Of a stretch of DNA of 64,000 nucleotides, positions 20,453-44,097 are shown in pieces. The stretch covers positions 32,001-96,000 of the forward strand of contig JBBIJY010000003.1 in NCBI GenBank assembly GCA_037445735.1. The letters are read 5' to 3'. The stretch is from Armatimonadota bacterium (lineage in GTDB: Bacteria > Armatimonadota > Fimbriimonadia > Fimbriimonadales > GBS-DC). Under the pieces are notes generated by a model that saw nothing but the letters and a program-made list of their open reading frames with translations, did no database searches and was not told the DNA's origin. The translations under genes and the position numbers were made by a program. Position 1 is the first letter of the stretch, and each line of letters starts with the position of its first letter.

Positions 20453-20460
20453 GGCGAGCG

Positions 20461-21269: not shown

Positions 21270-22799
21270 ATGCAAAGCGGGAGCCGTTTTATCCGACTGG
21301 TTGGATGGCTGCTGGCGGGTTTCATCGGCAGCTTACTGATGGCAGGGGCAGACCTGACCCCTGAATGGGTCACGCGCATCGCCTCCAGCTACTCCGATAG
21401 CCTGACCAGCATGCTGGTGGATAGCGCGGGGCAGGTCTATATTGTTGGTTCCACGGGCGCTTCGAGCAATCGCAGCATTCGAGCCGCCGCGATTAATCCC
21501 GACGGCACGGTTCGCTGGTCGAGCGTGTTGAGCAGCGGGCAGGCGGGCGGCGCGGCGCTCGGTGCTGATGGCGCCCTCTACATCGCGGGCAGTGCGCCCG
21601 GTCAGGGAGGTGCCTCCGACCTGATTCTGCTCAAATGCGACGCCAGCACGGGCAACCTGCTGCAGACCTATCGGTACAGCCGGGGCGCTGGCATCGCCGC
21701 AATCGGTGGGGCTGTGGCAGTGGACGCCCAGGGCAATCTCTATATCATGGGCGCCACGACGGGCGATGGCGCCGATGTGCTGCTGCTCAAGCTCGACGCC
21801 AGCCTGCAGCTGCAGTGGACGCGACTCTGGGACGGTCCTGCCAGCGTGCCCTACTCGCAGGATAGCGGCGTGCAGATGCTGCTGGATCCAGCGGGCAACC
21901 CCGTGCTGCTCATACGGGCAGTGATGGCGGACAACCAGCCGGATTATATGGTCGTCAAATACAGTCCCAGCGGCGCCATCCTCTGGCAGCAGAACTGGGG
22001 CACGCGCGCAGGCGATACGCCGCTGAAGATGGTGATGGACACCAGCGGCGACATCTATGTAACGGGATCCACCACCCGCACGACGCTGGTTTACGGCACC
22101 ATCAAACTGCGGGGCAGCGACGGGCAACTGCTGTGGGAGCAAATCGATTCGCAGGCGCTTCGCGACATCGGGCGTAGCCTCGCGCTCGACGCGCAGGGCG
22201 ATGTCTACATCACGGGCAGTGTCGACCCCGAAGGCAACGAAAGCAACTTCAACGACAACTTCTACACCGTGAAGCGCGGGGGCGCGACGGGCACGCCGCG
22301 CCGCTGGAGCCATCTCTACGGGCAAAACTGCGTGAACTGCTTCGATGTCCCCGCCGATATCGCCGTCGACTCCGCCGGGCATGTGCTGGTGGTCGGGCGA
22401 ACCAGCTCGCCGCCCTATGTGAACGACATGATTCTGCTCGTGCTGAACGCGCAGACGGGTCAGGAGCAGGATCGCGGCGTGGTGGATAGCGGCAGCGCCA
22501 TCTGGGGCGTGGAACCCGGCATCCTGCGGCTGGACAGCCGCGAAAACATCTATGTGGGCGCCGTGTTCAGGAACCTGAACACCGAAGTGCGGGAGCTGAC
22601 CGTCATCAAATATCGCTCCCTGACGCGCCCGCAGGGCGATGTGAACGGCGACGGCTGTGTGGACGATGCGGACCTGTTAGCCGTGCTGTTCGCGTTCGGG
22701 CAGTCGGGCAGCGGCTTGCCCGAAGATGTGAACGGCGACGGTATAGTGGACGACGCCGACCTGCTAATTGTGCTGTTCAACTTCGGAAACGGATGTTGA
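21270..22799 (+). CDS. secreted SBBP-type beta-propeller protein with C-terminal dockerin-like tail
   Basis: Signal peptide; repeated (V/L)DxxG(N/D)xY(I/V)xG blades; tail GDVNGDGCVDDADLL...FGNGC. Confidence 0.75.
   Translation: MQSGSRFIRLVGWLLAGFIGSLLMAGADLTPEWVTRIASSYSDSLTSMLVDSAGQVYIVGSTGASSNRSIRAAAINPDGTVRWSSVLSSGQAGGAALGADGALYIAGSAPGQGGASDLILLKCDASTGNLLQTYRYSRGAGIAAIGGAVAVDAQGNLYIMGATTGDGADVLLLKLDASLQLQWTRLWDGPASVPYSQDSGVQMLLDPAGNPVLLIRAVMADNQPDYMVVKYSPSGAILWQQNWGTRAGDTPLKMVMDTSGDIYVTGSTTRTTLVYGTIKLRGSDGQLLWEQIDSQALRDIGRSLALDAQGDVYITGSVDPEGNESNFNDNFYTVKRGGATGTPRRWSHLYGQNCVNCFDVPADIAVDSAGHVLVVGRTSSPPYVNDMILLVLNAQTGQEQDRGVVDSGSAIWGVEPGILRLDSRENIYVGAVFRNLNTEVRELTVIKYRSLTRPQGDVNGDGCVDDADLLAVLFAFGQSGSGLPEDVNGDGIVDDADLLIVLFNFGNGC
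22633..22799 (+). repeat. copy 1 of near-identical tail-coding cassette
   Basis: 22633-22765 is identical to 24343-24475. Confidence 0.95.
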
Positions 22800-22817
22800 G
22801 AAGGAGGTGCAATCGCC

Positions 22818-24509
22818 ATGCGCAACGGCTGGTTTGAAGCGTGCTGGCGGCGCGCGGGTTCCCGCTGGCGGTGGAGCCTGCTCGCGTGTCTGGTGCTGTG
22901 CTGGTCGTCGGGGCTGGCTCAGCCGCAGATTCAGTCGCTTTCCGCCACGAGCCTGCCCCGCAGTGGGCGGCTGCGCATCTTCGGCACAGGGTTCGGTGCG
23001 CCCTCGTCCAGCAGCTTCGTGACGATTGGTGGCGTGCGCTGCTGGACGACGCGCTGGACGGATACCGCCATCACCGCCTATGTGCCCGAATCGCTCGCGC
23101 TGGGCAGCCATCCCGTGCAGGTGGTGACGCCCGCAGGCGCGAGCAACACGGTGCCGCTGCAGGTTACAGCACGCACACCGCAGGGGCGCGTGCTGTGGCG
23201 CTTTCAGGCGGATGCAGACTATATTTATCAGCGCCCCGCTGTGGGACCCGATGGTACGATTGTGGTTCACGACTCGCGCGGCTATGTCTACGCGCTCAGC
23301 CCCGATGGGGGCTTGAGATGGGTTTTCGCCGCAGGCATCCCCTACGGACCGCCCTCCATCGGCAGCGACGGCACGGTCTATGTGGGCACGGGAGCCACCG
23401 TTAAGGCGATCAACGGCGCAACGGGCGCACTCCGCTGGCAGTTCACGGACAACACATCGGGCGCGCTCTGGATTATCGCTGGTCCGACGGTGGGTCCTGA
23501 TGGGAATATCTACGCGGTGACCAATACCTCCACATCGGGCGGCGGGCGGGGCGTCTTCTCGCTCACGCCCGCAGGACAACTCCGCTGGAGCGCACGCGGC
23601 AACCCGAATGTGTTTGAATATGGCTCTCTGGGCGTTGAAATCGTGTTTGGCGCCTCCCAATCGGGACGCCAGCCAGACCAGCTCTATGTGGCGTTCGATG
23701 AGCAGGGGGTGGCGATGTCGTCCCTGTTCGCCTTTCGGATGACAGGCGGGCAACGATGGTCGGTTACCACAGGCGGGCAGACCCAGAGCGGGTTCTCGCA
23801 GCCGCAGTGCCAGCCCGCGGTGGGACCCGATGGCACCATCTATCTCACAACCTTTTCGTCGTCAGCCGGTCATCAGTTGCAGGCGGTGAACCCTTCGAAC
23901 GGCTCGTTCCGCTGGGTCGTCACCCTCGATCCGGGCAACGATGTGTCCGCGCCCGATGTGGGTGTGGACGGCACCATCTATGTGGCGCATGCGCTGAGCT
24001 ATTTGAGCGCGTATGCGCCCAACGGCACGCGCCGATGGCGGATTTTCGATGGGGGCGTCCTGAAATACCCCATCGTCAGCCCGAGCAACCGCGCGCTGGT
24101 AGCGGGACAGCAGCCTCAGCTGGGCATGCCAGGCGCGGCACGCGGGTATAACCCCAGCAACGGGCAGCTGCTCTGGGAGGTGCTGCTGGGCAGCGAAAAC
24201 GGCGGCAATCAGGTGCTGTTCTCGCGCCCGCGCTTCTCCCGCGATGGGCGCATCGTCTACTTCGGGACCACCATCCTGGGACAGAACAGCCAGGACCCGT
24301 ATTGCTATCTGTATGCCGTTTATGCGGACCCCTCCTGGCAGGAGGGCGATGTGAACGGCGACGGCTGTGTGGACGATGCGGACCTGTTAGCCGTGCTGTT
24401 CGCGTTCGGGCAGTCGGGCAGCGGCTTGCCCGAAGATGTGAACGGCGACGGTATAGTGGACGACGCCGACCTGCTGATTGTGCTGTTCAACTTCGGAGAT
24501 GGGTGTTAG
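22818..24509 (+). CDS. secreted IPT/TIG plus PQQ-like beta-propeller protein with dockerin-like tail
   Basis: Signal peptide; IFGTGFG...WTDTAITAYVP (TIG); PAVGPDGTIY/GxLRW blades; same tail. Confidence 0.8.
   Translation: MRNGWFEACWRRAGSRWRWSLLACLVLCWSSGLAQPQIQSLSATSLPRSGRLRIFGTGFGAPSSSSFVTIGGVRCWTTRWTDTAITAYVPESLALGSHPVQVVTPAGASNTVPLQVTARTPQGRVLWRFQADADYIYQRPAVGPDGTIVVHDSRGYVYALSPDGGLRWVFAAGIPYGPPSIGSDGTVYVGTGATVKAINGATGALRWQFTDNTSGALWIIAGPTVGPDGNIYAVTNTSTSGGGRGVFSLTPAGQLRWSARGNPNVFEYGSLGVEIVFGASQSGRQPDQLYVAFDEQGVAMSSLFAFRMTGGQRWSVTTGGQTQSGFSQPQCQPAVGPDGTIYLTTFSSSAGHQLQAVNPSNGSFRWVVTLDPGNDVSAPDVGVDGTIYVAHALSYLSAYAPNGTRRWRIFDGGVLKYPIVSPSNRALVAGQQPQLGMPGAARGYNPSNGQLLWEVLLGSENGGNQVLFSRPRFSRDGRIVYFGTTILGQNSQDPYCYLYAVYADPSWQEGDVNGDGCVDDADLLAVLFAFGQSGSGLPEDVNGDGIVDDADLLIVLFNFGDGC
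24343..24509 (+). repeat. copy 2 of near-identical tail-coding cassette
   Basis: Direct repeat of 22633-22799 at offset 1710. Confidence 0.95.
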
Positions 24510-26416
24510 GCGAGCGCTTCCAGCACGCGCAGGGCGATCTGGGCGTTGCCAGCGGGCGGCATCAGATAGATGCCCTGCGCGCAGGGCGCCGCGGCGCGGA
24601 CGAACGCCTGCGCGATCTCCAGCCCCACCTCCAGCGCGCGCTCTTCGGGCGCCTCCGCCATCCGACGCAGCACCGCTTCGGGAATGCGGATGCCCGGCAC
24701 CTCGTTATGCATGAACTCGGCATGGCGGGCACTGCGCAGGGGCAGCACGCCCACAAACCACGGCACGCCCAGCCGCTGGCACAGCTCCGCCGTCGCCTCC
24801 ACAATCGGCATCTCGAAAATCGGCTGCGTGTAGACCAGGTGCGCTCCCTCGTCCACCTTGCGCTGGAGCCGCTCGCGCTCCATCGCCAGATCGGGCGCCA
24901 GCGGGTTATAGGCGACGGCAATCGTGAAGTTCGCCCGCATGCCAATCGTGTTGCCCGCCAGATCGATGCCCTCGTTGAACCGCTTCAGAATGCGCACCAG
25001 CCCGATGGCGTCCACATCGAACACGCTGGTGGCGGTCGGATAGTCGCCGATCTGGGCGGGGTCGCCCGTGATTGCCAGCACATTGCGGATGCCCAGCGCG
25101 TGCGCGCCCAGCAGGTCCGACTGAATCGCCAGCAGGTTGCGGTCGCGGCAGGCGAAATGCATCATCACTTCAATCCCTGCCTGCTCCTGAATGAGGTGCG
25201 AGATTGCCATCACATTCATGCGCAGGCGGGCGCGCGCCCCGTCCGAGATGTCGATCAGATGCACGCCGTTCTCTTTGAGCAGGCGGGCGCTCTCTATCAC
25301 CTTCTGAACGGTCAGTCCACGCGGCAGGTCCAGCTCCACCGTGATGACGCGCTCTTTGCCCAGCCGTTGCGCGAGCTGGGAGGGGCTGGCGAGCGGCAGT
25401 TCGGCGGGCAGGCGTTCGCGCAGGGCGCCCCCTCTCCCCTCTGGGGAGAGGGCCGGGGTGGGGGGTCTCCTTGCCGGGTGGACACGCGGCTTCGCGCTCG
25501 CCACCGCACGGGCGACAGCGCGAATGTGGTCGGGCGTCGTGCCGCAGCAGCCTCCGACAATCTGTGCGCCCGCCTCCACCAGCCGCGCCGCATAGCGCCC
25601 GAAATAGTCGGGCTGAATATCGTACACCACCTGACCGCGCACCAGCTGGGGCAAGCCGGGCGTCGGCATCGCCGAGAGGGGCAACTCGCTCGCATGCGCC
25701 ATCATGCGAACGATGTCCAGCATGCGCTGGGGACCCACCACGCAGTTGGCGCCTATCGCGTCCACGCCGAGTGTGCTGAGGTGGCGGGCGAACCGTTCGG
25801 GCAAGCCCTCCATCAGCGTCTCGCCGTCCTCAATAAAGCCTTTGGAGGCGATCAGCGGCAGGTCGGGCGCGAGGCGGCGCACCGCGCGGATGGCGACCTC
25901 CAGCTCGCGCGGGTCGGTGAAGGTCTCCAGAACGATGCCGTCGACGCCCGCCTCGATGAGCGCCTGCGCCTGCTCGGTGAACGCCTGCTCCGCCTCCTGT
26001 AGCCGAATCTCGCCTAACGGCTCCAGCGGTTTGCCGACGGGTCCGATGGAGCCGAAGATGAGCGCGTCGCCCCCCACCGCGTCGCGCGCCAGCTCCACCG
26101 CCCGCTGATTGATGCGGCGCACCAGCTCTTCAGGCGAGCCGTACTGCTCCAGCAGGCTCTGCGCGGGCGGCAACTCGCTGCCCCGTTCAGGAATGTTCAG
26201 CAGGCGGATGCGGTTCGAGGTGTAGGTGTTGGTCTCGATCAGCCGTGCGCCCGCCTCGTAATAGGCGCGATGGATCTGCTGAACCAGTTCGGGCTGGGTC
26301 AGGTTCGCCAGATCGTAGGGCATCGGGATGCCCCGCAGCGCGAGCATCGTGCCCATCGCCCCGTCGGCAACCAGCACCCCCTGCGCCAATCGCTCCGCAA
26401 ACTCCTGCCGCGTCAT
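24506..26416 (-). CDS. yitJ: bifunctional homocysteine S-methyltransferase / methylenetetrahydrofolate reductase
   Basis: VADGAMGT, ETNTY, GANC, GGCCGTTPDHI; MTHFR part HFACRDRNL, TGDP, YTQP. Confidence 0.9.
   Translation of the reverse strand: MTRQEFAERLAQGVLVADGAMGTMLALRGIPMPYDLANLTQPELVQQIHRAYYEAGARLIETNTYTSNRIRLLNIPERGSELPPAQSLLEQYGSPEELVRRINQRAVELARDAVGGDALIFGSIGPVGKPLEPLGEIRLQEAEQAFTEQAQALIEAGVDGIVLETFTDPRELEVAIRAVRRLAPDLPLIASKGFIEDGETLMEGLPERFARHLSTLGVDAIGANCVVGPQRMLDIVRMMAHASELPLSAMPTPGLPQLVRGQVVYDIQPDYFGRYAARLVEAGAQIVGGCCGTTPDHIRAVARAVASAKPRVHPARRPPTPALSPEGRGGALRERLPAELPLASPSQLAQRLGKERVITVELDLPRGLTVQKVIESARLLKENGVHLIDISDGARARLRMNVMAISHLIQEQAGIEVMMHFACRDRNLLAIQSDLLGAHALGIRNVLAITGDPAQIGDYPTATSVFDVDAIGLVRILKRFNEGIDLAGNTIGMRANFTIAVAYNPLAPDLAMERERLQRKVDEGAHLVYTQPIFEMPIVEATAELCQRLGVPWFVGVLPLRSARHAEFMHNEVPGIRIPEAVLRRMAEAPEERALEVGLEIAQAFVRAAAPCAQGIYLMPPAGNAQIALRVLEALA
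25428..25466. repeat. palindromic repeat inserted in-frame in the yitJ linker
   Basis: CCCCCTCTCCCCTCTGGGGAGAGGGCCGGGGTGGGGG; encodes [13 protein letters not shown]. Confidence 0.85.
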
Positions 26417-26484
26417 CTTCAGGGGGATTGTACCATAAACGGGCGTTCCACACCCATGCGCGAGCGGGTCTGATGGCGGCATCC

Positions 26485-29400
26485 TCAGCAGGACTCGCCC
26501 CCACCGATTGCCTCTAACACCACCTTTCCAATCGCCTCCGCCTGTTCGGGGTAGGCGCGAATCAACACAGCGCACATCCTCAGCGCAGACAGCCTGAAAT
26601 AGGCGCACGGTAGCAGGAGCTGCTTGTAATACTGCCGGTCGCCCGCCTCCACCATTGCCTTTGCAACTCTTGGGAAAACCTCATGATATTTGCCTGCGAG
26701 CAGCTGGGCAGTGTTCACCGCATCGGCAAACAGTCCTGCCCGCGCCTGCTCTTGCGCTATCACCCGCGCCCCAATATGCTTTTCTATATCGGGAACCCCC
26801 CGAACAACATTCACTGCTTCGTCAAAGAGCTGAATGGCTTGCTCCCTCTGCCCTTCTCGCGCCAGCGCTTCAGCTCTCAACGCCGACTCCCAAACCCCTC
26901 GGCAAGTCGCCGTCTCAATCCTCGGATAAGCCTTCAGCGCTTCGTCAAAGATTTGCTGGGCTTCTTCCCTTTGCCCTACCAACGCGAGTGATTCTGCAAT
27001 CGCTGTCAGTGCATTTGCTCTCCAATAAGGCTCCACAATCACCCGAGCAGCAGCAAGCGCTTCCCCAAAGACTTGCTCGGCTTGTTCTCTTTGCCCTGAT
27101 CGTGCCCGTGCTTCAGCAATCGCTGCCAATGCCCAAATCGGTGTATACGCGTCGACAATTCGAGAGGTGGTTCCCAGCGTTTCGGCAAAGAGTCGCAGAG
27201 CTTCCTCCCGTTGCCCTGACTGTGCCAGCCTTTTGACCCTCTTCACTTGCGCCTCCGCCCTCTGATACAAATCGATAGTCTCAAGCTCAACTTCCGATTC
27301 TTCTTCAGGAGCCTGCGCAGTTTCTTCTGTAAAAGAGCGCTCGATATCAGTCCAACAGTGGTCGGGAAGCAGAGACTTGAGCTTCTCCAAGAAGCCCTTT
27401 TCTATGTCTTCAGCAATCAGCTGAAGCAGAGCGCTAGCAAACAGCTGGTGCCAGCGCCTCTCAAGAGAAAGAACAGACGACTCGGTCAAACGCTCAAGAA
27501 CAACTTTGCGCTGCTCGCGGTCGGGTTGGGCTTCCGCCAGCATGAGGTACCAGAGGGTGCGGATGCGGGCTTCATACATGTCGGCAACTTTCAGCGCGTG
27601 TTCCAGATTGCCCGTGGTGCGCCAGATTTCGTAGGGCGACCGGGTGCTGCGCGTCGCTTCGACAATCTGTGCATGGCGGAGCATTAGTTGAGTCAGTATC
27701 ACAGCCTCGTCGCGCTGGCTGGCGACCTGAATCGCCTGCTGGAGCGGTTTCAGGAGCAGGTCTGGCTCGGTGGGGAACGCCTCGCGTTGCGCCTGCAGGA
27801 AGTTATCATCCAGCGCCAGCGTGTAGAGCGCTTCGGCAGCCGCTTTATCGCGGGGGGCGCGCTCCATCAGGTGAGTGGAGTAGTGGCGCAGGGCGTAGCC
27901 GCTTTTGTGTTCCTTCCAGCGAGCGCAGTGGTTCAGCAGCGCCTGTTCCATCCACTCGGCTTCCCCGCCCAGCGCATTACGGAACTCTATCGCCAGCAGG
28001 GGGTGCGCGAACTGCCAGCCCGCCTCGGAGCAGAGGAACCAGCGGCGCACAGGCTGGGGCAGGTTCTGCAAGTCCCACACAGAGACCTCGCAGAGGGTTT
28101 CCAGATCGCTTTCAGGCAGGGGCGCTTTGACGACGGTGAGCAGGGCGAACATGCGTCGGATACCCTGCGCGTTGGACACATGCGACGCCAGCTGGCGAAT
28201 CTGGCGCTGGATGTATTCCTGCATCCCCCTCGGCGCGTTCTGAAGCGCCTGTTTCGGGTCTGGGGACTCCTGCAGATCTTCCAGCAGGTAGCGGGCGTAG
28301 AGTGTCAGCCCTTCGGTGCGCTGGTGAAGCTGGCTGATGAAGTCGGGGTCGTCGGCATAAGCGCGGAGCGGTTCAATATTGCTCACCCATTCGCGCAGGT
28401 CGTCTTCGCTCAGGGCGTCCAGCGCGAACTGGGCGTCGGCGCGTCGGAGCCACGCCTCAAGGTAGGGCGGCGGCTCAGGTCTATTGTCCCAGCGTGCGCT
28501 GACTATCACGAATATGCCGTCGGGCAGGGTATCGGGCAGGGGCGGATAGAGGATGGGCGCGTCCGCCTCGTCCAGCGCGTCTATCAGCAGCACGAGGCGC
28601 TTGCGTGGGGGCTTCAACTCGCGAATCTGATAGAGTAGTTGCGCACGCAGCTCGTCGGGATTGTTATCGGGCAGGTAGACCTGCATACTGGTGATGTGTC
28701 CCAGTTGCAGCAGCAGGTGGGCATAGGCGTACTCCACGCGCGTGCCCAGCCCGCCCAGCTCCTCGCGCGTGGAGAAGAAGTGGAACGCGACATCGGTGTC
28801 GCCGCGCGCCTGCAATCGGTTCAGCAGTTTCATCATCAGGCGGGTTTTGCCGTAGCCTGCGGGCGCATGCACCACCGCCGTCCCGCTGGAGCGCGTCGTG
28901 AGGAACGCTTCCAGATTCGCCAGAATATCGTGCCGCCCCACGAATATCTCCTGCGTGTAGGCTTGCAGGAATCGGAGCGTGCCCTCGTGGAGCAGGCGGT
29001 AGCGGTGCTTTTCGCCGAGCAGGTTGACGATGAACTCCACGCGCTCGCGGGTGTCGCGGATGGCGTGCAGGATGGGTTCGGTGATAGAGTGAGCCAGCTC
29101 ACGGGCGCGTTCCTGCCAGCGGTCAGGCTCCGATTCGAGCCACTCGCTGAAGGTGCGAGTGAACTGCTCGTGGCGCTCCTGCAGGAGCTGAACCCCCTGC
29201 GCGATTTCGGGCGTGAGTTGCTGCGTTTCACGCAGCGCCTGAAGAGTCGCGTCCAGCATCTGCTTCTGGAAGGCAATCCACGCACGCTGGTGCTGGGGGT
29301 CTTTGAGCAGCTGGGCGAACTCGTGCCGAAAGAGGTCGGGCAGGCGGGTTTTGAGGAACTCGCTCAGGCTGCTGGGGATAGGTGTGGGTTCTGTTAGACG

Positions 29401-29883
29401 CTGGAGCAGGTTCAGCAGCCAGTCGGCAATCGCTGGGCGCGGGGATGTTTCGAGCGCGGGCGCGTCGAAAGATTGCTCGCCGACAGTTTCGAACACCTGC
29501 GCGTCGCCCCCTCTGATGGCTTCGGCAAGTCGCCCCTCCCACTCGTTGAAGAGCCTCTCTTCTTCTGGAGAAAGCCCGCGCGGGAGGTTGCTGGTGTCGC
29601 TGGTTTGCTGGCGCAGTTCCTCACGGGCGCGGTTGAGGGCGTTTCGCAGCGCTTCGAGCTGGGCGCGTTCCAGGTCGGCGTTGCGGGGCGGTCGGAAGCG
29701 GCGAATCGCGTTCTCCAGACGCTCTCTGGAGAAGTCCGCTGCCGCTGGCACTGCAATCTCCCCCAGCACGCTGCCGATGAACCCGCCTGCGAAGCCGCCG
29801 ATGGGTCCGCCCATCACGCTCCCCAGAGCCATGCCTGCGGCGATGCAGGCGTCCCTGACAGGGTTTTCGCCACCGAAGAGCAT
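26485..29883 (-). CDS. NACHT/STAND-type NTPase (NLR-like) with N-terminal glycine zipper and C-terminal TPR-like repeats
   Basis: FVGR, Walker A APAGYGKT, Walker B LVLLIDALDE, TEGLTLY, FAHPLL; repeated GQRE(E/Q)AxxxFxExL units. Confidence 0.8.
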   Translation of the reverse strand: MLFGGENPVRDACIAAGMALGSVMGGPIGGFAGGFIGSVLGEIAVPAAADFSRERLENAIRRFRPPRNADLERAQLEALRNALNRAREELRQQTSDTSNLPRGLSPEEERLFNEWEGRLAEAIRGGDAQVFETVGEQSFDAPALETSPRPAIADWLLNLLQRLTEPTPIPSSLSEFLKTRLPDLFRHEFAQLLKDPQHQRAWIAFQKQMLDATLQALRETQQLTPEIAQGVQLLQERHEQFTRTFSEWLESEPDRWQERARELAHSITEPILHAIRDTRERVEFIVNLLGEKHRYRLLHEGTLRFLQAYTQEIFVGRHDILANLEAFLTTRSSGTAVVHAPAGYGKTRLMMKLLNRLQARGDTDVAFHFFSTREELGGLGTRVEYAYAHLLLQLGHITSMQVYLPDNNPDELRAQLLYQIRELKPPRKRLVLLIDALDEADAPILYPPLPDTLPDGIFVIVSARWDNRPEPPPYLEAWLRRADAQFALDALSEDDLREWVSNIEPLRAYADDPDFISQLHQRTEGLTLYARYLLEDLQESPDPKQALQNAPRGMQEYIQRQIRQLASHVSNAQGIRRMFALLTVVKAPLPESDLETLCEVSVWDLQNLPQPVRRWFLCSEAGWQFAHPLLAIEFRNALGGEAEWMEQALLNHCARWKEHKSGYALRHYSTHLMERAPRDKAAAEALYTLALDDNFLQAQREAFPTEPDLLLKPLQQAIQVASQRDEAVILTQLMLRHAQIVEATRSTRSPYEIWRTTGNLEHALKVADMYEARIRTLWYLMLAEAQPDREQRKVVLERLTESSVLSLERRWHQLFASALLQLIAEDIEKGFLEKLKSLLPDHCWTDIERSFTEETAQAPEEESEVELETIDLYQRAEAQVKRVKRLAQSGQREEALRLFAETLGTTSRIVDAYTPIWALAAIAEARARSGQREQAEQVFGEALAAARVIVEPYWRANALTAIAESLALVGQREEAQQIFDEALKAYPRIETATCRGVWESALRAEALAREGQREQAIQLFDEAVNVVRGVPDIEKHIGARVIAQEQARAGLFADAVNTAQLLAGKYHEVFPRVAKAMVEAGDRQYYKQLLLPCAYFRLSALRMCAVLIRAYPEQAEAIGKVVLEAIGGGESC

Positions 29884-29952
29884 AACGGTATGATTATACC
29901 TCCTGCAACTATACTGTCAGGGGTTTCCGAGCGGGTGTTCGCAAAAAAGGAA

Positions 29953-29986
29953 AGCCCCCTCACCCGTACCCGCTCCCCCGCAGGCG
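29953..29986. repeat. partial palindromic repeat
   Basis: AGCCCCCTCACCCGTACCCGCTCCCCCGCAGGCG. Confidence 0.75.
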
Positions 29987-30068
29987 TTGATATGGGTTAT
30001 AATTATGGTAGCCCTGTGCGCCCGATGAGCGCATGGGGGAGACCAATCTGATGAATGGTGGAACAACG

Positions 30069-30884
30069 ATGGGACGGCTGGTTCGGGTGTACGCACTTGT
30101 TGGCGCAGGCGTTCTGTCGTTGCTGGTGACGGCAGGCTGGTCGCAGAGGTTGACCTGGCTGGGCACGCTCGGCGGTTGGGGGAGCGAGGCTTGGAGCGTA
30201 TCGGCGGATGGCGCGGTGGTGGTTGGCTGGGCATTCAATGCCAGCGGTTATGACCAAGCCTTCCGCGGGACGCCTGCTGGGGGAATGCAGGACCTCGGCA
30301 CGCTGGGCGGCAGTGTGAGCGAGGCTCGCAGTGTTTCTTCAGACGGCGCAGTGATTGTCGGCTGGGCATGGAATGCCAGCGGTCAGACTCGCGCCTTTCG
30401 CTGGACGCCAGCAACAGGGATGCAAGACCTTGGCACGTTGGGCGGCAGTCAGAGTGGGGCTTACGGCGTATCAGCGGATGGCACAGTGGTGGTTGGCTGG
30501 GCATTCAGCGCCAGTGGTCAGACACGCGCCTTCCGCTGGACACCAGCGGGCGGGATGGAAGACCTGAACCAGACCTACGCCAGCCTGTTGAGAGATGGCT
30601 CGTATCTGACGAGAGCGCACGCCATCAGCCCCGACGGGCGCTACATCGTGGGCTGGGGCTATAATGCGGCGACGGGGTTCAGCGAGGCATACTTGCTGGA
30701 TACCTGGCGCATGGGCGATACCAACGGCGACGGTTGCATTGATGACTCCGACTTACTTGCCGTGCTGTTCGCGTTTGGCACGCCTGGCACAGGCTCCACG
30801 CGCCACGAGGACATCACCGAGGACGGTATCGTGGACGACGCGGACCTGCTGGTGGTGTTGTTCAACTTCGGCAGTGGGTGTTAG
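30069..30884 (+). CDS. secreted HAF-like repeat protein with dockerin-like tail
   Basis: Signal peptide; three LGTLGGxxSxAxxVSxDGxVxVG...AFRxT repeats; tail GDTNGDGCIDDSDLL...FGSGC. Confidence 0.85.
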   Translation: MGRLVRVYALVGAGVLSLLVTAGWSQRLTWLGTLGGWGSEAWSVSADGAVVVGWAFNASGYDQAFRGTPAGGMQDLGTLGGSVSEARSVSSDGAVIVGWAWNASGQTRAFRWTPATGMQDLGTLGGSQSGAYGVSADGTVVVGWAFSASGQTRAFRWTPAGGMEDLNQTYASLLRDGSYLTRAHAISPDGRYIVGWGYNAATGFSEAYLLDTWRMGDTNGDGCIDDSDLLAVLFAFGTPGTGSTRHEDITEDGIVDDADLLVVLFNFGSGC

Positions 30885-30997
30885 CCCTCACCCCCCTGCC
30901 TCCTCTCCCCAGGCTTGTTAGCCCCCTCACCCGTACCCTCTCCCCCACTGGGGGAGAGGGGCTAAACTTCTCCCTCCCCCGCAGGCGGGGGAGAGGG
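30885..30997. repeat. cluster of palindromic repeats
   Basis: CCCCCTCACCCGTACCCTCTCCCCCACTGGGGGAGAGGG plus two partial units. Confidence 0.9.
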
Positions 30998-31118
30998 CGT
31001 GCGGACTCCCGTTTTATGGCAGGCGGTAGCGGTAGTCCCACACGGTTTCGCCAGGCGGCACGGTCAGCTCCCCGATGAGCAGGGTGGCGCCGCGCCGTTT
31101 GTGCCACTCCCACCGCTT

Positions 31119-32818: not shown

Positions 32819-32840
32819 CGATAGGCACCTCCACAGCATG

Positions 32841-32927: not shown

Positions 32928-32953
32928 CCGCCTGCCCGCTGCTGAGCGTGAAA

Positions 32954-33754: not shown

Positions 33755-33764
33755 CGTTGTGTCC

Positions 33765-36412: not shown

Positions 36413-36977
36413 CAATCGGTGGTGGCGGCACGACCGAGCTGTTCGGGTAAATCTCGACCGTGCCGAAATCGATCAAGCCAGGCGAGCTGAACACTGTGCC
36501 GACGACGCCCGCCCGCTCCGATGCGATCAGACAGCCGCCGCTGGTGTTCGGATCCGCGGGCAACTGAATGATGCGCACCCTGCCCGATGGATCGGTATGT
36601 TTGATAATGGCGGTGTAGTTGGCTGGCTTCTGAATCCAGATGCCTCGAAAGCGCACATTGGAGGGCACATTGCGCAGGATGAAGTCGCCCTCGCGCGCGT
36701 TCGGGTTGAACACTCTGGCGATATTGAGCGCGATCTCATCCGAGTCAGGCTGCCCTGCCACGACGCGCCGAAAACCCAGATCGCCCTGATCGGTCAGAAA
36801 CAGCACGGTGGCGTCACCAATCGGCGCTTTCGTGACGGAGTCGATCACGCGCAGGTAGGCGACGCGCTCCTGAACAACGACGCCGCCGCCACCGCCTGCG
36901 CCACCGCCGCCGCAACCGCTCAGCAGCGGCACCACCAGAATCGCTGCAATCCGTAGCCACCAGCTCGCTCGTCTCAT
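36396..36977 (-). CDS. hypothetical lipoprotein
   Basis: Lipobox LSGC plus poly-Gly; C-terminal VPPPPIDEDCP. Confidence 0.7.
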   Translation of the reverse strand: MRRASWWLRIAAILVVPLLSGCGGGGAGGGGGVVVQERVAYLRVIDSVTKAPIGDATVLFLTDQGDLGFRRVVAGQPDSDEIALNIARVFNPNAREGDFILRNVPSNVRFRGIWIQKPANYTAIIKHTDPSGRVRIIQLPADPNTSGGCLIASERAGVVGTVFSSPGLIDFGTVEIYPNSSVVPPPPIDEDCP

Positions 36978-37069
36978 TCGCTCTCTTGCCTCCATATCGT
37001 TCGACGATTCAGCCTGCCGTTTGATTTTCCTGCCAGCGATTATACCTTCCCGTCGGGTACACTCCCGAT

Positions 37070-38488: not shown

Positions 38489-38520
38489 GGTATTCTTCTG
38501 ACGATGCAGGAGGCAGAACG

Positions 38521-39015
38521 ATGGACTTGAACAGCGCACTGGTTCATCTGGCGATTAACCATTTTCCTGTGATGGGCGCGATTGGCGCGGCGCTGATTAT
38601 GCTGGGAGGGCTGATCCGCCGCAGCGCCGACGTGCAGAAGGTGGCGCTCGCAACGATGCTGATAGTCGGCTTGATGGCGTATCCGACCTATCTTTCGGGG
38701 CATCAGGCAGAGGAGCGCGTCGAGCGTATGGCTGGCGTGGACAAAGCCGCACTGGAAGCCCACGAGGAGCTGGGCACGGCGGGACTCTATGTGGGGCTTG
38801 CACTGGGGCTGATCGGGCTGGCGGGGCTGGTCATCAGCCGTGGGAAGTCGGTGCCTGTGGCGATGAGCATCGTCGCGCTGGCGGCAAGCCTGCTCGCATC
38901 AGGCTATATGGGCTATGTCGCGCACTCTGGCGGGCTGATCCGCCATCCCGAAATCAGCGGCGCACCACCCGCTCTTGGTGAAACGCACGAGTCGGAAGAA
39001 GGCGAGCATGAATGA
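38521..39015 (+). CDS. His-containing 4-TM membrane protein (DUF2231-like)
   Basis: HLAINHFP, SGHQAEE, HEE, AHSGGLIRHPE. Confidence 0.65.
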   Translation: MDLNSALVHLAINHFPVMGAIGAALIMLGGLIRRSADVQKVALATMLIVGLMAYPTYLSGHQAEERVERMAGVDKAALEAHEELGTAGLYVGLALGLIGLAGLVISRGKSVPVAMSIVALAASLLASGYMGYVAHSGGLIRHPEISGAPPALGETHESEEGEHE

Positions 39016-39027
39016 GGGAGTGAAAGC

Positions 39028-39414
39028 GTGAGACCTGCAACCCGTCTGGTTGCGCTGACATGGCTGGCAATCGGTGTCAGCACGCTCTATCTGGCGTGGC
39101 GGGGTACGCCGATGCCCGTCAGCCTCAAGTTCTTCGCCGTCTTGCAGGTGGCAGGCGCAATTCTGACCTCCCTGCGCCATCCAGCGGGCTGGCTCATCCT
39201 GATTACCATGTCGGTCTTCACGATGGTGTCGGGGCTGTTCGCGCTCATCAGCGTGCCGTTTTTGCCGCCCGAATCGCTGAAGGACGCGCCGCGCATCGGT
39301 GGGCTGGACCCGCGCTGGCTGGCGAGCGCGACCGCGCTCTTCGCCGTTCTCTTCGGGCGAGCGAGCTGGCTCTGGCTGCGCAGGGACACGCCCAGCAACT
39401 GGCGAGCGGTATAA
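39028..39414 (+). CDS. hypothetical membrane protein
   Basis: GAGGGAG SD, four hydrophobic segments. Confidence 0.6.
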   Translation: MRPATRLVALTWLAIGVSTLYLAWRGTPMPVSLKFFAVLQVAGAILTSLRHPAGWLILITMSVFTMVSGLFALISVPFLPPESLKDAPRIGGLDPRWLASATALFAVLFGRASWLWLRRDTPSNWRAV

Positions 39415-39433
39415 TTGAGCAGGTGATGCCAGT

Positions 39434-39988
39434 ATGGCAAGCGCGGTTCGTCAGCGTATGAGCGTTGCGGAATTTGAACGCCACTATCTGGGCAAACGCG
39501 CCGAGCTGTGGCGCGGGGAGGTGCGCGAATATATGCCAGCAAGCCCCAAACATGGAAAAGTTGCGCTGAATATTGGCGCCGAGATACACGCTTTCGCTCG
39601 CCAGCACCAGCTGGGCGTGGCTTTCGCCGCCGAGACGGGTTTTATTCTGCGCACGCCTGCGGGGGAGAGCGTGCTGGCGCCCGATGTGGCGTTCATCCGC
39701 AAAGAGCGCCTGCCCGAAGGCGAGTTCCCGGCGGGCTTCTGCCCGATCGTGCCCGATCTGGTGGTGGAGGTGGTCTCGCCCAGCGATTCGTACGCCGATG
39801 TGCGGGAGAAGGTGAGCGAGTGGCTGGCGGGCGGCGTGCCGCTGGTGTGGGTGGTAGACCCCCAGCGACGCGTGGTGGAGGTCTGGCGAGCAGGCGAGCC
39901 TGTGCAGACGCTGAGCGAGGGCGACACGCTTTCGGGTGATCCCATCCTGCCGAACTTCCAGATCAAAGTCAGCGCGCTGCTGGAGTAG
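39434..39988 (+). CDS. Uma2 (DUF820) family endonuclease-like protein, copy 1
   Basis: ELWRGE, APDVAFI, PDLVVEVVSPSD, WVVDP. Confidence 0.93.
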   Translation: MASAVRQRMSVAEFERHYLGKRAELWRGEVREYMPASPKHGKVALNIGAEIHAFARQHQLGVAFAAETGFILRTPAGESVLAPDVAFIRKERLPEGEFPAGFCPIVPDLVVEVVSPSDSYADVREKVSEWLAGGVPLVWVVDPQRRVVEVWRAGEPVQTLSEGDTLSGDPILPNFQIKVSALLE

Positions 39989-40021
39989 CCTGTCGCGGTA
40001 TCATCACGGGGGTGATTACAG

Positions 40022-40576
40022 ATGGCAAGCGCGGTTCGTCAGCGGATGAGCGTAGCGGAGTTTGAACGCCACTATCTGGGTAAACGCGCCGAACTGTGGC
40101 GCGGGGAGGTGCGCGAATATATGCCAGCGGGTCCAAAGCACGGAAAGGTCGCCGCCCGACTGACGGTTCGAATCGGGGCATATCTGCTGAACACGCGCGA
40201 AGGGGAGCTATTTGCCGCCGAGACGGGTTTTATTCTGCGCACGCCTGCGGGGGAGAGCGTGCTGGCGCCCGATGTGGCGTTCATCCGCAAAGAGCGCCTG
40301 CCCGAAGGCGAGTTCCCGGCGGGCTTCTGCCCGATCGTGCCCGATCTGGTGGTGGAGGTGGTCTCGCCCAGCGATTCGTACGCCGATGTGCGGGAGAAGG
40401 TGAGCGAGTGGCTGGCGGGCGGCGTGCCGCTGGTGTGGGTGGTAGACCCCCAGCGACGCGTGGTGGAGGTGTGGCAGGCAGAAGGGCAGGTGCGAACTCT
40501 CTCCGAGAACGACACGCTCACGGGTAAACCCGTGTTAAGGGGCTTTCAGGTGCAGGTCGCGGAGCTGTTCGAGTAG
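40022..40576 (+). CDS. Uma2 (DUF820) family endonuclease-like protein, copy 2
   Basis: Tandem paralog; 40214-40470 is identical to 39626-39882. Confidence 0.93.
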   Translation: MASAVRQRMSVAEFERHYLGKRAELWRGEVREYMPAGPKHGKVAARLTVRIGAYLLNTREGELFAAETGFILRTPAGESVLAPDVAFIRKERLPEGEFPAGFCPIVPDLVVEVVSPSDSYADVREKVSEWLAGGVPLVWVVDPQRRVVEVWQAEGQVRTLSENDTLTGKPVLRGFQVQVAELFE

Positions 40577-40578
40577 CC

Positions 40579-42744
40579 TTATGCTTCCTCCAGCGATGCG
40601 CTCTGCAGGGGCAGGGTGAGCATACCTGTGCCGCCCGGAAACATCACCGTGATGAACTCCCCGGTCGTGCGCACAACGATTCCGAACCCGTGCTGGGGAT
40701 GGCGCACGCGCTGCCCTGGCAGAAAATGCGACGCTGCCGACGGGCTGCGCCGCTTCGACGGATGGGCAGGTTGAACATCGGGCTGGCGCGGCTGGTACGC
40801 GCCCAGCATCAGCTGATGGAGCGTCGGAGTCTCCAGCCCTTTGAGCGCCCGCAAAAAGGACGACGGCTCGCTCCACCGACGGCTGCCGTAATAGCGACGC
40901 GACTGCGCAAAGGTCAGGTGCAGCTCGTCCATCGCGCGCGTCATACCCACATAGCAGAGCCGACGCTCCTCCTCTATATCGGCGGGCGTCTCGCACAGCG
41001 CGTGCGGCAACAGCCCGTTCTCCAGACCGACCAGAAAGACCACCGGGAACTCCAGCCCTTTGGCGGTGTGCAGCGTCATCAACAGCACCTGATTGCCCCG
41101 CTCGCCGAGCGTGTCGGCGTCGGTCGCCAGCGCCACATGCTGCAGGTATGCCATCGGGGAGGCGTCGCCACTGGTCGCCAGCATCTCGTCCTCGAACCGC
41201 TGCACCTCGTTCAGCAGCTCGCGCACATTGGCGGCGCGATCCACCGATTCGGCGTCCCTGCGCTCCTCCAGCCATGTCAGGTAGCCCGTGCGCTCGATAA
41301 TCTGCTTCATCAACGCGCTCAGCGGCTCGCGCTCGGCAACCGCTCGCAGCGATTCAATCAGGGTGACGAAGCTCTGGATGGCTTTCACTGCCTGCGCCGG
41401 CATCAGCTGGAGCAGGTCGGGGTCCTGCATCGCGCGGTAGGGGCTGACGAGCCGCCCGGCGGCATGCAGCTGAATCGCGAGCAGGGTCTGCTGCCCGATT
41501 TTGCGCGGCGGCGTGTTGATGATGCGTCGCAGGCTCACCGTATCGTCGGGATTGACCACCAGGCGCAGGTAAGCCAGCAGGTCTTTGACCTCTTTGCGGT
41601 CGTAAAAGCGCAACGCGCCCACGATGCGGTGCGGGATGCGCTCGCGCAGGAACCGCTCCTCGAACACGCGCGACTGGGCGTTCGTGCGATAGAGGATGGC
41701 GAAGTCGCCGTAGCGGCGCTGACCCTGATAGACCCGCCGCTGGATATATTCGGCAATCAGCCGCGCCTCCTCCTCTTCGTCGCTGACAGGGGTGAGCGTG
41801 ACGGGGATGCCGTCCGTACGCTCTGTCCACAGGCGCTTGGGCGCACGAACCCTGTTCTGGCTCACGATTCGCACCGCCGCGTCCAGAATCGGCTGGGTGG
41901 AGCGATAGTTGCGCTCCAGCTTGACCACCTTCGCGTCGGGAAAGTCCTGCTCAAAGCGCAGAATCAGCTCCGGCTCCGCGCCCCGAAAGCGATAGATCGA
42001 CTGGTCATCATCGCCCACTACGCAGAGGTTGCGATGCTCGCTTGCCAGCATGCGCACCAGCACATATTGCGCGTAGTTCACATCCTGATATTCGTCCACC
42101 AGAATATAGCGGAACTGCTGCTGATACCGTTCCAGCACGCGCGGCTGCTCGCTGAACAGGCGAATAACCATCAGCAGCAGGTCGTCGAAATCGAGCGCGT
42201 TCGCCGCCTGCAAGGCTTGCTGATAGCGCGGGTAGACGCTGGCGACGATGCGCTCGAAATAGTCCACCGCGCGCGCAACATACTGTTCGGGCGATAGCAG
42301 TCGCTCTTTGGCGCGGCTGATAGCGTTGCGAATCGAGCGCGGGTTGAACTGTTTCTCGTCTAAATCCAGCTCGCTCAGCACCTGACGGATGAGGTCGAGC
42401 TGGTCGTTCTCGTCGTACACAAGGAAGTTGGGCGGGATGTCGATGGCGCGTCCGCTCTCGCGCAGGATTCGGGCGCAGATGGCATGGAAGGTGCCTATCC
42501 ACAGCCCGCGAATGTCCATATCCAGCAGCCGTTGCAGGCGTTCCTTCATCTCGTCGGCTGCTTTGTTGGTGAAGGTCACCGCCAGAATCTGGCTGGGCGC
42601 GACGCCGTGCGTGTAGATGAGATTGGCGATGCGATAGGTGATGACGCGCGTTTTGCCGCTGCCCGCGCCCGCAAACACCAGCAGCGGGCCGTCCCTGTGC
42701 AGCACCGCCTCCAGCTGCTCCGGGTTCAGCGCCCCCAGATCCAT
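40579..42744 (-). CDS. pcrA: UvrD/PcrA DNA helicase
   Basis: AGAGSGKT, TFTNKAA, VDEYQD, GDDDQSIY, NYRST, TLHTAKGLEF, EERRLCYVGMTRA. Confidence 0.96.
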   Translation of the reverse strand: MDLGALNPEQLEAVLHRDGPLLVFAGAGSGKTRVITYRIANLIYTHGVAPSQILAVTFTNKAADEMKERLQRLLDMDIRGLWIGTFHAICARILRESGRAIDIPPNFLVYDENDQLDLIRQVLSELDLDEKQFNPRSIRNAISRAKERLLSPEQYVARAVDYFERIVASVYPRYQQALQAANALDFDDLLLMVIRLFSEQPRVLERYQQQFRYILVDEYQDVNYAQYVLVRMLASEHRNLCVVGDDDQSIYRFRGAEPELILRFEQDFPDAKVVKLERNYRSTQPILDAAVRIVSQNRVRAPKRLWTERTDGIPVTLTPVSDEEEEARLIAEYIQRRVYQGQRRYGDFAILYRTNAQSRVFEERFLRERIPHRIVGALRFYDRKEVKDLLAYLRLVVNPDDTVSLRRIINTPPRKIGQQTLLAIQLHAAGRLVSPYRAMQDPDLLQLMPAQAVKAIQSFVTLIESLRAVAEREPLSALMKQIIERTGYLTWLEERRDAESVDRAANVRELLNEVQRFEDEMLATSGDASPMAYLQHVALATDADTLGERGNQVLLMTLHTAKGLEFPVVFLVGLENGLLPHALCETPADIEEERRLCYVGMTRAMDELHLTFAQSRRYYGSRRWSEPSSFLRALKGLETPTLHQLMLGAYQPRQPDVQPAHPSKRRSPSAASHFLPGQRVRHPQHGFGIVVRTTGEFITVMFPGGTGMLTLPLQSASLEEA

Positions 42745-42770
42745 CAGGGTACAGTGTACCCGAAAAAATA

Positions 42771-42832
42771 ACCCCCTGCTTCCCTCTCTGGGACGAGGGC
42801 TACCTGAACCCCTTCCCCTTCACGGGGTAGGG
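42771..42832. repeat. degenerate palindromic repeats
   Basis: CCCTCTCTGGGACGAGGG and CCCTTCCCCTTCACGGGGTAGGG. Confidence 0.45.
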
Positions 42833-43010
42833 CGTCGTTCCCAAGCGGGCTGCCCGCGCGAAAAGGGTATTCTGTCTGGCGATGCTGGCACAGTACAGCA
42901 CGCCCGTCGTCAACCATGCCCCTGAAGAGCCGCACGAGGAACTGGAGCCTTGAAGGAGCCAGCCGTTGCCGACAGCACCTGAGGCGGGTATACCCCTGTC
43001 GGGGAACGCG

Positions 43011-43266
43011 ATGGTCAAGTGGGTCAAAGTGAAATATCGAGGTGGCGTTCTGGAGCCGCTGGAGCCGCTGGGGCTGGAAGAAGGCGCCGAGCTGACCGTG
43101 ATGATTCCTGCTCTGGGGGAAGCGTCGGGAACCGATGAAAGCATTACGGCGACCGCAGGCGCGTGGGCAGACCTGACAGGTGGCTATCAGCATCCTCTCG
43201 CTGGCGGAGCTTTACGAAGGTGTGTTCCGCGCTCGCGAGCCGCGGGCAGCTGAAGACGAATCTTAG
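43011..43266 (+). pseudogene. deleted toxin-antitoxin module: AF2212/DUF104-like antitoxin joined out of frame to a PIN/VapC fragment
   Basis: VKYRGGVLEPLEPLGLEEG...TAGAW, then another frame (43180-43266) VAISILSLAELYEGVFRAREP. Confidence 0.7.
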
Positions 43267-43398
43267 CCCCCAGAATCGCCCCAAAAGGGGCAAATGGGGA
43301 CAAAAGTCCTGTTCGGTTCCGCGCAAAAGTGGTGTATAATAGGCGATGGGGGAGCGACGCCTCCCCATTGAAACACTCTTTGGAAGGGGGTCAAGACG

Positions 43399-44097
43399 AT
43401 GCGTACAGTGCGATGGAACCGAGGGCGCGTCGCGCTGAATGCGCGACTGAGTGGGGTGCTGGTGATAGGGCTGATGACGCTAACGGCGTTGATGGCACAA
43501 CCGGTGTACTGGGAAGGAAACGGGCATTATTACGAGTTTGTTCTCAGCAGCTCAATCTCATGGCAAAATGCTCGTAGTCAGGCGGAACAGCGGACTTACC
43601 AGTGTCGTCGTGGGTATCTGGCAACGATTACCTCTCAAGCAGAGCAAGACTTTGTTTGGAATCTGCTCCGTACGAATTACACCTGTGGTGGCGTATCATC
43701 ACAGTTCTATCTCGGTGGATATGAGAATCCTGCGGGGAGCGGGAACTGGCACTGGGTCACTGGGGAACCGATGGACTTCACTTACTGGGAGCAAGGCGAG
43801 CCGAATAATCGGGGTTATGAAACGGTGATTGCGCTTGGGTTGTTTTGCTCCGGGCGCTGGAATAATGTTCCGCCCGATGGGTCATGGGGAGCGCGCGGCT
43901 ATATCGTTGAGTATAGTGAAGCCGGCACAAGCGGCGATGTAGACCAGAACGGCTGCGTGGACGATGCTGACTTGCTGGCAGTGCTGTTTGCGTTTGGACA
44001 AACAGGCAGTGGACTCCCTGAAGATGTCAACTGTGATGGCACAGTGGACGACGCCGACCTGTTGACTGTGCTGTTCAACTTCGGCAGCGGGTGTTAG
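43399..44097 (+). CDS. secreted C-type lectin-like protein with dockerin-like tail
   Basis: NGHYYEF, SWQNAR, GYLATITSQAEQDF, WVTGEP, WEQGEPNN, WNNV, GYIVEY; tail ending FGSGC. Confidence 0.88.
   Translation: MRTVRWNRGRVALNARLSGVLVIGLMTLTALMAQPVYWEGNGHYYEFVLSSSISWQNARSQAEQRTYQCRRGYLATITSQAEQDFVWNLLRTNYTCGGVSSQFYLGGYENPAGSGNWHWVTGEPMDFTYWEQGEPNNRGYETVIALGLFCSGRWNNVPPDGSWGARGYIVEYSEAGTSGDVDQNGCVDDADLLAVLFAFGQTGSGLPEDVNCDGTVDDADLLTVLFNFGSGC

Follow-up and report, generated by a model that had tools for sequence, protein, structure and literature searches.

A short dockerin-like tail at the C-terminus of about 100 proteins in a Fimbriimonadales genome without a recognisable cohesin

Why would four unrelated secreted proteins end in the same short, cysteine-closed tail? 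The question is raised by a 64,000-nt stretch of an Armatimonadota genome of the order Fimbriimonadales (assembly GCA_037445735.1, contig JBBIJY010000003.1, positions 32,001 to 96,000), hereafter the window. A preliminary description of the window had taken the tail for an undescribed, lineage-specific docking tag of dockerin type with two invariant cysteines. We analyzed the tail in the window, in the whole genome (2.78 Mb, 99.2% complete, 62% G+C) and in related genomes. The observation was confirmed, and its interpretation was supported in part. From the computed fold, position, copy number, passenger diversity and cysteine co-occurrence of the tail, and from the missing cohesin match, we infer with a probability of about 0.5 that it is a minimal dockerin-fold tag. 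It would be folded by Ca2+, mostly clasped by a disulfide, and would dock about 100 exported proteins non-covalently on a shared envelope partner other than a cohesin.

Translation of the four open reading frames (ORFs), all on the + strand, indicated that each is closed by the same module of 54–56 aa, which ends in Gly-Cys followed by the stop codon (Table 1). The consensus of all four tails is GDxxxxGC[VI]DD[AS]DLLAVLFAFG-linker-EDxxxDGxVDDADLLxVLFNFGxGC-stop. NCBIfam and Pfam matches confirmed that the passengers are unrelated (SBBP, TIG + PQQ_2, HAF and C-type lectin), and signal-peptide-like N-termini were present in all four proteins. Over 66 residues, which include 12 unrelated upstream residues, tails 2, 3 and 4 were 82, 68 and 73% identical to tail 1, respectively. 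A hidden Markov model (HMM) of the four tails was run against the 30,217 six-frame ORFs of the genome. It scored its own tails at E = 2e-28 to 6e-25, indicating that the shared tail is not a chance likeness. In nucleotide sequence, tails 1 and 2 differed at 6 of 165 nt, whereas the 60 nt before them differed at 43 of 60. The likeness of these two tails therefore starts exactly at the first codon of the module, and the tails of the neighbouring genes appear to have been homogenised.

Tandem duplicated segments were found in the module, each a 12-residue Ca2+ loop of the pattern D-x-[ND]-x-[DN]-G-x-x-D-x-x-D followed by a helix (four tails, and column statistics of 89 full modules of the genome). 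The Ca-ligand columns are kept in both loops: D13, D31 and D42 in all 89 modules, D2 in 87 of them. The helices are very hydrophobic (LLxVLFxFG, twice). An alignment of 79 tails of this genome (A1) was used for a profile search of the Protein Data Bank (PDB) and for AlphaFold2. The profile search returned solved dockerins first (8ajy_B, E = 1e-8; 2y3n_B, E = 1.5e-7) and calmodulins next. The AlphaFold2 model, with a predicted local distance difference test score (pLDDT) of 88, has two predicted helices, one after each Ca-type loop. When this model was searched with Foldseek, ranks 1 to about 34 were dockerin chains of cohesin–dockerin complexes. The top match was 2y3n_B, with a template modelling score (TM) of 0.73 and a root-mean-square deviation of 1.2 Å over 54 columns. 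EF-hand proteins reached a TM of 0.28 at most. A calmodulin-like EF-hand identity was rejected on this score and because only the post-loop helix is present, the loops being alike in sequence only. By the model, the module is a short dockerin of 54 aa, with an 8-residue linker and without the middle helix, and it adopts the dockerin three-dimensional fold, in agreement with the type first proposed for it.

The tag is not undescribed, since NCBIfam already models such tags as NF041540, 'GC-type dockerin domain-anchored protein' (dockerin_GC, 67 positions). It belongs to this catalogued kind. At the limit used for the window tails (E ≤ 0.01), NF041540 matched two of them (18.6 and 16.4 bits; curated cut-off 29 bits), and the other two had no listed match. 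Both alignments run through the last profile position, that of tail 1 covering positions 9–67 of 67. The traits of the model were found here, namely an extreme C-terminal module ending in Gly-Cys (four window tails) on secreted proteins with unrelated passengers; the Gly-Cys ending as a defining feature is read from the family name, not from curated text. Genome-wide, NF041540 gave 69 six-frame matches at E ≤ 1, and 2 of the 69 reached 29 bits. Pfam Dockerin_1 (PF00404; gathering cut-off 22.9 bits) scored three window tails at 19.6, 18.9 and 19.1 bits, and the fourth was not listed. At least 6 of 99 tail-bearing ORFs of the genome exceeded this cut-off at the E-value limits used. The models numbered beside NF041540, a choice-of-anchor R domain (NF041539) and a FosB-type family, are unrelated to the tail. 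The term 'GC-type dockerin' was not found in a literature search.

How common is the tail? An HMM seeded with the four window tails and iterated over six-frame ORFs found it in 99 ORFs of the genome. Full modules were present in 89 of them; 63 of these 89 end exactly at the stop codon and 85 lie no more than 7 residues from it, so frequent internal placement was not seen. The one clear non-terminal full module of the genome belongs to an Rhs/YD-repeat protein with a polymorphic-toxin-like C-terminus, where it covers residues 216–268 of 678 (L031:1-2037, G000:C6:106991-109027).

Export was assessed with two crude signal-peptide heuristics. The looser one was positive for 67 of 78 tail ORFs and 556 of 1,451 controls; this first one scores 38% of control ORFs positive. 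The other was applied to a crude gene set in which 84 of 2,197 ORFs (about 4% of genes) bear the tail. It was positive for 61 of the 84 tail genes versus 342 of 2,113 other genes, so that the predicted secretome of 403 proteins includes 61 with the tail, or about 15%.

The passengers of the 99 tail ORFs were searched with Pfam at E ≤ 1e-4 for the first 50 ORFs and at E ≤ 1e-6 for the remaining 49. Among the families found were propellers (about 8 of WD40 type, plus PQQ, SBBP, FG-GAP and BNR/sortilin) and peptidases (two S8, two M23, M10 and M1). SpoIID, glucose/sorbosone dehydrogenase, galactose-oxidase-like E-set domains, a lamin-tail domain (LTD), PPC, Ig-like and carboxypeptidase-regulatory-like domains and the C-type lectin were also found. 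No Pfam family was found for 58 of the 99 ORFs at these limits, and cellulases were not found among the passengers. The propeller, lectin-like, Ig-like, peptidase and SpoIID cargo suggests that the tail marks proteins held at the surface for binding and for lysis or proteolysis. The proposal of a non-cellulosomal tag at the extreme C-terminus of unrelated secreted proteins was therefore supported.

Other C-terminal tags occur in the same genome. PEP-CTERM gave 31 matches over the curated cut-off genome-wide (e.g. C27:9964-10035), 30 of them on ORFs without the tail, so an exosortase-type tag appears to coexist with the dockerin tag. One weak PEP-CTERM match (E = 5.1e-4) lies inside a tail-bearing ORF, at C41:1214-1285. 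A C-terminal module of 370 aa with a FlgD-like Ig end sits on WD40 and S8 passengers, among others. Such passengers thus occur with different C-terminal modules, as would be expected if the tail serves in anchoring or sorting. In the four window tails, no hydrophobic segment or cleavage-type motif follows the module, which ends at Gly-Cys-stop. The C-terminal domain model of the type IX secretion system (T9SS), TIGR04183, had 0 matches in the genome, although the named control genomes hardly test that model. A cleaved C-terminal sorting signal of the PEP-CTERM, LPXTG or T9SS type was rejected, because the tail has no transmembrane helix or basic tail and TIGR04183 had no match.

What do the cysteines do? 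We define Cys8 as a Cys at module position 8, which is position 7 of loop 1, and end Cys as a Cys in the last three residues. Both were present in 59 of the 89 modules, and every module with Cys8 (59/59) has an end Cys. Of the 30 modules without Cys8, 11 have an end Cys and 19 do not. The cysteines called invariant are thus invariant in the four window tails and not in the genome. The last module position itself is Cys in 67 of 89, and 18 of 89 are free of Cys at both sites. The association between Cys8 and end Cys was strong (Fisher p = 5e-12; 89 modules, which as paralogues are not independent). In 5 of the 11 modules with end Cys alone, a Cys lies just upstream of loop 1 instead.

The same co-occurrence was observed outside this genome. 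A full terminal module is present in 118 of the 150 best-scoring representative proteins; 90 of the 118 carry both Cys, 23 the end Cys alone, 5 neither and 0 Cys8 alone. Many of the 23 have a Cys one position earlier. Among 80 loci of relatives, 72 carry both Cys, 5 were called end-only (2 of these calls are misses of the search pattern), 3 carry none and 0 the loop Cys alone. In two other families of the order, f2 and f4, nearly all of 30 tails lack both Cys and end in ...NFGxxG[DE]x; the pair is present in about 2. Clasped and Cys-free module subtypes coexist in the genome of the window.

Dockerin ends are described as forming stabilising 'intramolecular clasps' in a passage of PMC3821032. 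In the AlphaFold2 model of the tail, Cys8 and the penultimate Gly are shown as isolated bridge residues. The genome has a single gene for a disulfide-forming enzyme of VKOR type (63.8 bits, G000:C20:22352-22738), and no DsbB was found. The VKOR-type gene is flanked on its contig C20 by tail-bearing genes at 19986-20855 and 24893-28667. The consistent pairing (59/59; 90/90; 0 breaks in 80 loci) favours a stabilising disulfide clasp, one of the two roles first offered for the cysteines, over a covalent anchor. As both Cys are absent from 18 modules here and from nearly all f2 and f4 tails, the cysteines are probably an add-on clasp rather than the attachment point, and the function of the tail does not need them.

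How far has the tail spread? Loci with close relatives of the tail came from metagenome-assembled genomes labelled Fimbriimonadales or Armatimonadota. Tail copies were counted in 40 genomes of the order at E ≤ 0.001. In the window's own family, f1, all 24 genomes had matches, with 32–137 copies each. All 3 genomes of f2 (70–84 copies) and the one genome of f4 (9 copies) were also positive. Matches were found in 4 of 6 genomes of f3 (0–2 copies) and in 1 of 6 genomes of f5 (0–1 copies). Outside the order, 13 of 150 evenly sampled Armatimonadota genomes had any match (E ≤ 1e-6), with 1–3 each. The expansion of the tail is therefore lineage-specific, as had been proposed, and is found in three families (f1, f2 and f4) of the order sampled. 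The tail profile against 1.84 billion representative proteins gave 27,906 matches at E ≤ 1e-3 and 1,700 at E ≤ 1e-10, ordinary dockerins included. The helix motif differs by family, being DDADLLxVLFxFG in f1, DLxDLNxVLxxFG in f2 and DDLDFLxVIxNFG in f4. Three secreted proteins of about 370 aa, P0003, P0005 and P0009, consist almost wholly of 6–9 tandem dockerin-like stretches, and two of the three end in Cys-Glu. Close matches to the DNA of the window came from sequencing runs with a subsurface label, and runs with a hot-spring label held small shares of its words. In the literature search, 'dockerin' with 'Fimbriimonadales' was not found, and 'dockerin' with 'Armatimonadetes' gave nothing on topic by title and abstract.

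A dockerin calls for a partner. Pfam Cohesin (PF00963) had no match at E ≤ 1 in the genome of the window. Weak cohesin-like matches in four relatives were under the cut-off, and L183, the one that was read, proved glycosidase-like in a BLAST comparison with the genome of the window. Internal repeats, the signature of scaffoldins, were not found by BLAST among 342 secreted ORFs without the tail. Candidate partners were sought by their distribution, with six queries over 41 genomes of the order. L190, a secreted protein of 1,163 aa without a Pfam match, was present in 41 of 41 and is not specific. L201 (959 aa) was strain-specific (2 of 41 genomes), and L202 (937 aa) was found in 38 of 41. The 370-aa C-terminal module, carried by nine secreted paralogues, was found in 41 of 41 genomes, with 4–7 copies in the tail-bearing families and 1–2 in the others. 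A CsgG-like neighbour gene, considered as partner or machine, occurred in 41 of 41 genomes, tail-less ones included. A family of 24 secreted paralogues of about 260–314 aa (e.g. C1:44893-46000) failed as a lead because it is prepilin-like. Three of its members were read by eye; two start with the prepilin-type GFTLIELLVV... and all three have D-G-H near the C-terminus.

The remaining candidate, o6227, is a secreted protein of 1,821 aa (G000:C4:75257-80722). The distribution of its N-terminal 1,200 aa matches that of the tails: f1 24/24, f2 3/3, f4 1/1 and f3 0/6, with two weak local matches in f5. Full-length orthologues occur in f1, f2 and f4 and in neither f3 nor f5. This co-distribution is weak evidence, because the three families form one clade and so stand for a single evolutionary event; many clade-specific genes would show the same pattern. 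A profile of 15 orthologues against the PDB found TolB-like, carboxypeptidase-regulatory-like and FlgD-like parts. AlphaFold2 on residues 455–1035 gave a pLDDT of 65.9 and a beta-sandwich at the start; Foldseek returned generic matches only (TM ≤ 0.16). No cohesin was found in o6227 by the profile search of the PDB or by Foldseek of the predicted fold. Complex prediction of two o6227 parts with the tail returned 'no answer' with a score of 0.00, which bears neither way. Thus o6227 is a weak candidate for the receptor, sharing the distribution of the tag and having nothing else in its support. Its gene lies in a conserved cluster (L185, L249, L199 and L250; G000:C4:75257-91107) with the CsgG-like gene and two genes for proteins with the 370-aa module. 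One of these two proteins is an S8 subtilase, and the module ends in a FlgD-like Ig domain.

We propose the following mechanism. About 100 proteins would be exported by Sec with a dockerin-fold module of about 54 aa, made of two Ca2+ loop–helix units, at their very C-terminus. Ca2+ would fold the module after export. In most copies, a disulfide between Cys8 and the last residue would clasp its N- and C-terminal ends. Two near-identical conserved helix faces (DDADLLxVLFxFG, twice) would then dock the passenger non-covalently on one shared envelope partner, which would not be a sequence-recognisable cohesin. Several results weigh against this mechanism. Pfam Cohesin was over the cut-off in 0 of 41 related genomes, and in the family of the window the 24 further genomes had no match even at E ≤ 1. 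The six distribution queries over the 41 genomes identified no partner. All four window tails score under the curated cut-offs of NF041540 and Dockerin_1. In five terminal modules, loop 1 and its surroundings offer no partner for the terminal Cys, one module has a loop Cys (position 7) and no terminal Cys, and the Cys statistics come from paralogues and relatives that are not independent. Moreover, the M23 peptidases, SpoIID and glucose/sorbosone dehydrogenase are as compatible with the periplasm as with the surface.

Other explanations account for part of these results. The tail may bind a non-protein component of the envelope, such as lipopolysaccharide, peptidoglycan or exopolysaccharide, using its Ca2+ sites and the hydrophobic faces of its helices. 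A cohesin could not be detected in any of 41 genomes, lpxA, lpxB and lpxC in the window indicate that the organism makes lipid A, and proteins that consist of tandem modules (P0003, P0005 and P0009) fit avidity for a repetitive ligand. However, all solved structures that resemble the model are protein-binding dockerins, and helix faces conserved family by family are what a co-evolving protein partner would more typically produce; we regard a non-protein ligand as unlikely. Slightly less probable still is that the tail acts like the T9SS C-terminal domain, as an export or sorting signal for an outer-membrane translocation machine and not as a permanent anchor. A dedicated machine was not found (TIGR04183, 0 matches; the CsgG-like gene is in 41 of 41 genomes, those without tails included), and a predicted folded, Ca-binding and disulfide-clasped domain without a subsequent hydrophobic or cleavage-type motif does not look like such a signal. 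Its place at the very end of about 15% of the predicted secreted proteins (61/403) would suit a sorting signal. So would the other shared C-terminal module on WD40 and S8 passengers, the 31 coexisting PEP-CTERM matches, and the fact that NCBI models such tags beside 'choice-of-anchor' passenger domains, such as the neighbouring NF041539.

A partner may not be needed if the tails associate with each other, or if they stabilise or solubilise their passengers in Ca-rich, hot surroundings without a dedicated receptor. The very hydrophobic helices (LLxVLFxFG, twice), the failure to find a partner, and the subsurface-labelled close DNA matches with small hot-spring-labelled word shares go in this direction. 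Yet a hundred different proteins have no evident use for binding one another, and strict C-terminal placement with near-identical tails on unrelated cargo points to a shared external interaction, which makes this explanation improbable. The terminal Cys could also attach the protein covalently to the envelope through a lipid, a thioether or an intermolecular disulfide. This link had been suggested before, and a last-position Cys in 67 of 89 modules and the 5 terminal modules with a terminal Cys and no nearby partner are in its favour. But Cys8 is always paired with a terminal Cys, both sites lack Cys in 18 of 89 modules, and about 2 of 30 f2 and f4 tails have the pair, so covalent attachment is very improbable. 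Non-covalent docking of a Ca-folded dockerin on an envelope protein is the explanation that we prefer. It can be extended: the clasped minimal dockerin may be the main surface-display tag of the three Fimbriimonadales families and dock a non-cohesin receptor, with o6227 as one candidate. We regard this extension as doubtful, though conceivable. If it holds, these bacteria would have a cohesin-independent 'dockerin-ome' that keeps peptidases, wall-lytic enzymes, lectins and propellers on the cell, and it would serve scavenging or attack on neighbours in microbial mats.

Table 1. Tail-bearing genes of the window and their C-terminal tails, with positions in the window.
Feature	Position	Strand	Evidence
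Gene 1: secreted SBBP beta-propeller protein, 509 aa, tailed	21270..22799	+	Pfam SBBP 63.1 bits; signal-peptide-like N-terminus
Tail 1: 54-aa putatively Cys-clasped dockerin module + stop	22635..22799	+	NF041540 18.6 bits; Dockerin_1 19.6 bits; AlphaFold2 pLDDT 88
Gene 2: secreted TIG + PQQ_2 propeller protein, 563 aa, tailed	22818..24509	+	Pfam; signal-peptide-like N-terminus
Tail 2: 6/165 nt differences from tail 1	24345..24509	+	nucleotide comparison
Gene 3: secreted HAF-repeat protein, 283 aa, tailed	30033..30884	+	NCBIfam TIGR02913 124.9 bits; signal-peptide-like N-terminus
Tail 3: 56-aa variant, linker +2 residues	30714..30884	+	NF041540 16.4 bits, under cut-off
Gene 4: secreted C-type lectin protein, 232 aa, tailed	43399..44097	+	Lectin_C 26.1 bits; signal-peptide-like N-terminus
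Tail 4: additional Cys in loop 2	43933..44097	+	translation, Cys count

The other genes of the window are housekeeping genes (ffh, MetH/MTHFR-like, lpxB, lpxA, fabZ, lpxC, LptD_N-like, uvrD and degP-like), indicating that the tail genes are not in a dedicated operon. Orthologues of genes 1 and 2 with about 91–92% identity were covered by contigs from RNA libraries of two studies, in which DNA carry-over is possible. The 14 bases right after the stop codon, GCCCTCACCCCCCT (window 30885-30900 and 44098-44113), are identical in the HAF and C-type lectin genes, whose passengers are unrelated. The window also contains a tandem pair of Uma2-family endonuclease-like genes (39434-39985 and 40022-40573) and, on the - strand, a gene for a NACHT/AAA-TPR protein of 1,132 aa (26488-29883).

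Dockerins are textbook parts of the cellulosome, each needing a cohesin. Here a dockerin marks about 100 secreted, non-cellulolytic proteins per 2.8-Mb genome across a whole lineage, in which a recognisable cohesin is missing. This means either that cohesins can diverge so far that they escape detection, or that a second type of dockerin receptor exists. Knowing the receptor would show how the cell surface of these uncultured Armatimonadota is built. It would also yield a small docking pair, Ca-switched and disulfide-stabilised, of possible practical use; the pair might even tolerate heat, provided that the small hot-spring matches tell of the habitat. A point for annotation is that NF041540 fails to call almost every copy in this lineage, with 67 of its 69 matches under the cut-off.

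Among known systems, NF041540 is the closest in kind. Like the window tails, it is a C-terminal duplicated dockerin-like module with a Gly-Cys end on secreted proteins with unrelated passengers. The tails here are shorter (54 aa versus 67 positions), belong to Armatimonadota and coexist with a Cys-free subtype. Cellulosomal dockerins of types I and II (PF00404; 2y3n_B, 1ohz_B) have the same fold, a duplicated Ca loop and helix with internal two-fold symmetry. The two-fold symmetry of the tail is reminiscent of the dual binding mode of dockerins. Unlike the cellulosomal forms, the tails have no cohesin match, no cellulases in their cargo and no helix in the 8-residue linker; a putative disulfide replaces the stacking-type clasp, and the tails belong to a diderm with lipid A.

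The 'planctosome' hypothesis, as outlined in 10.1101/388082, holds that non-cellulosomal dockerin-tagged peptidases and an LTD protein assemble at the outer membrane of freshwater Phycisphaerae. The tails analyzed here likewise sit on S8, M10, M1 and M23 peptidases and on an LTD protein. The planctosome, itself a hypothesis, rests in that outline on recognisable cohesins, none of which were found here. As described in a passage of Slutzki et al. 2013 (PMC3821032), contact between the N- and C-terminal ends stabilises the Ca-bound dockerin, as we propose for the tail; the clasp described there is a Trp-Pro stack tested by mutation, whereas here it would be a Cys-Cys disulfide. Compared with these systems, the new features are the occurrence in Armatimonadota, the large share of genes with the tail (about 4%), the shortfall of the curated model, the clasped and Cys-free subtypes, one weak candidate for the partner, and the absence of cohesin matches throughout the family.

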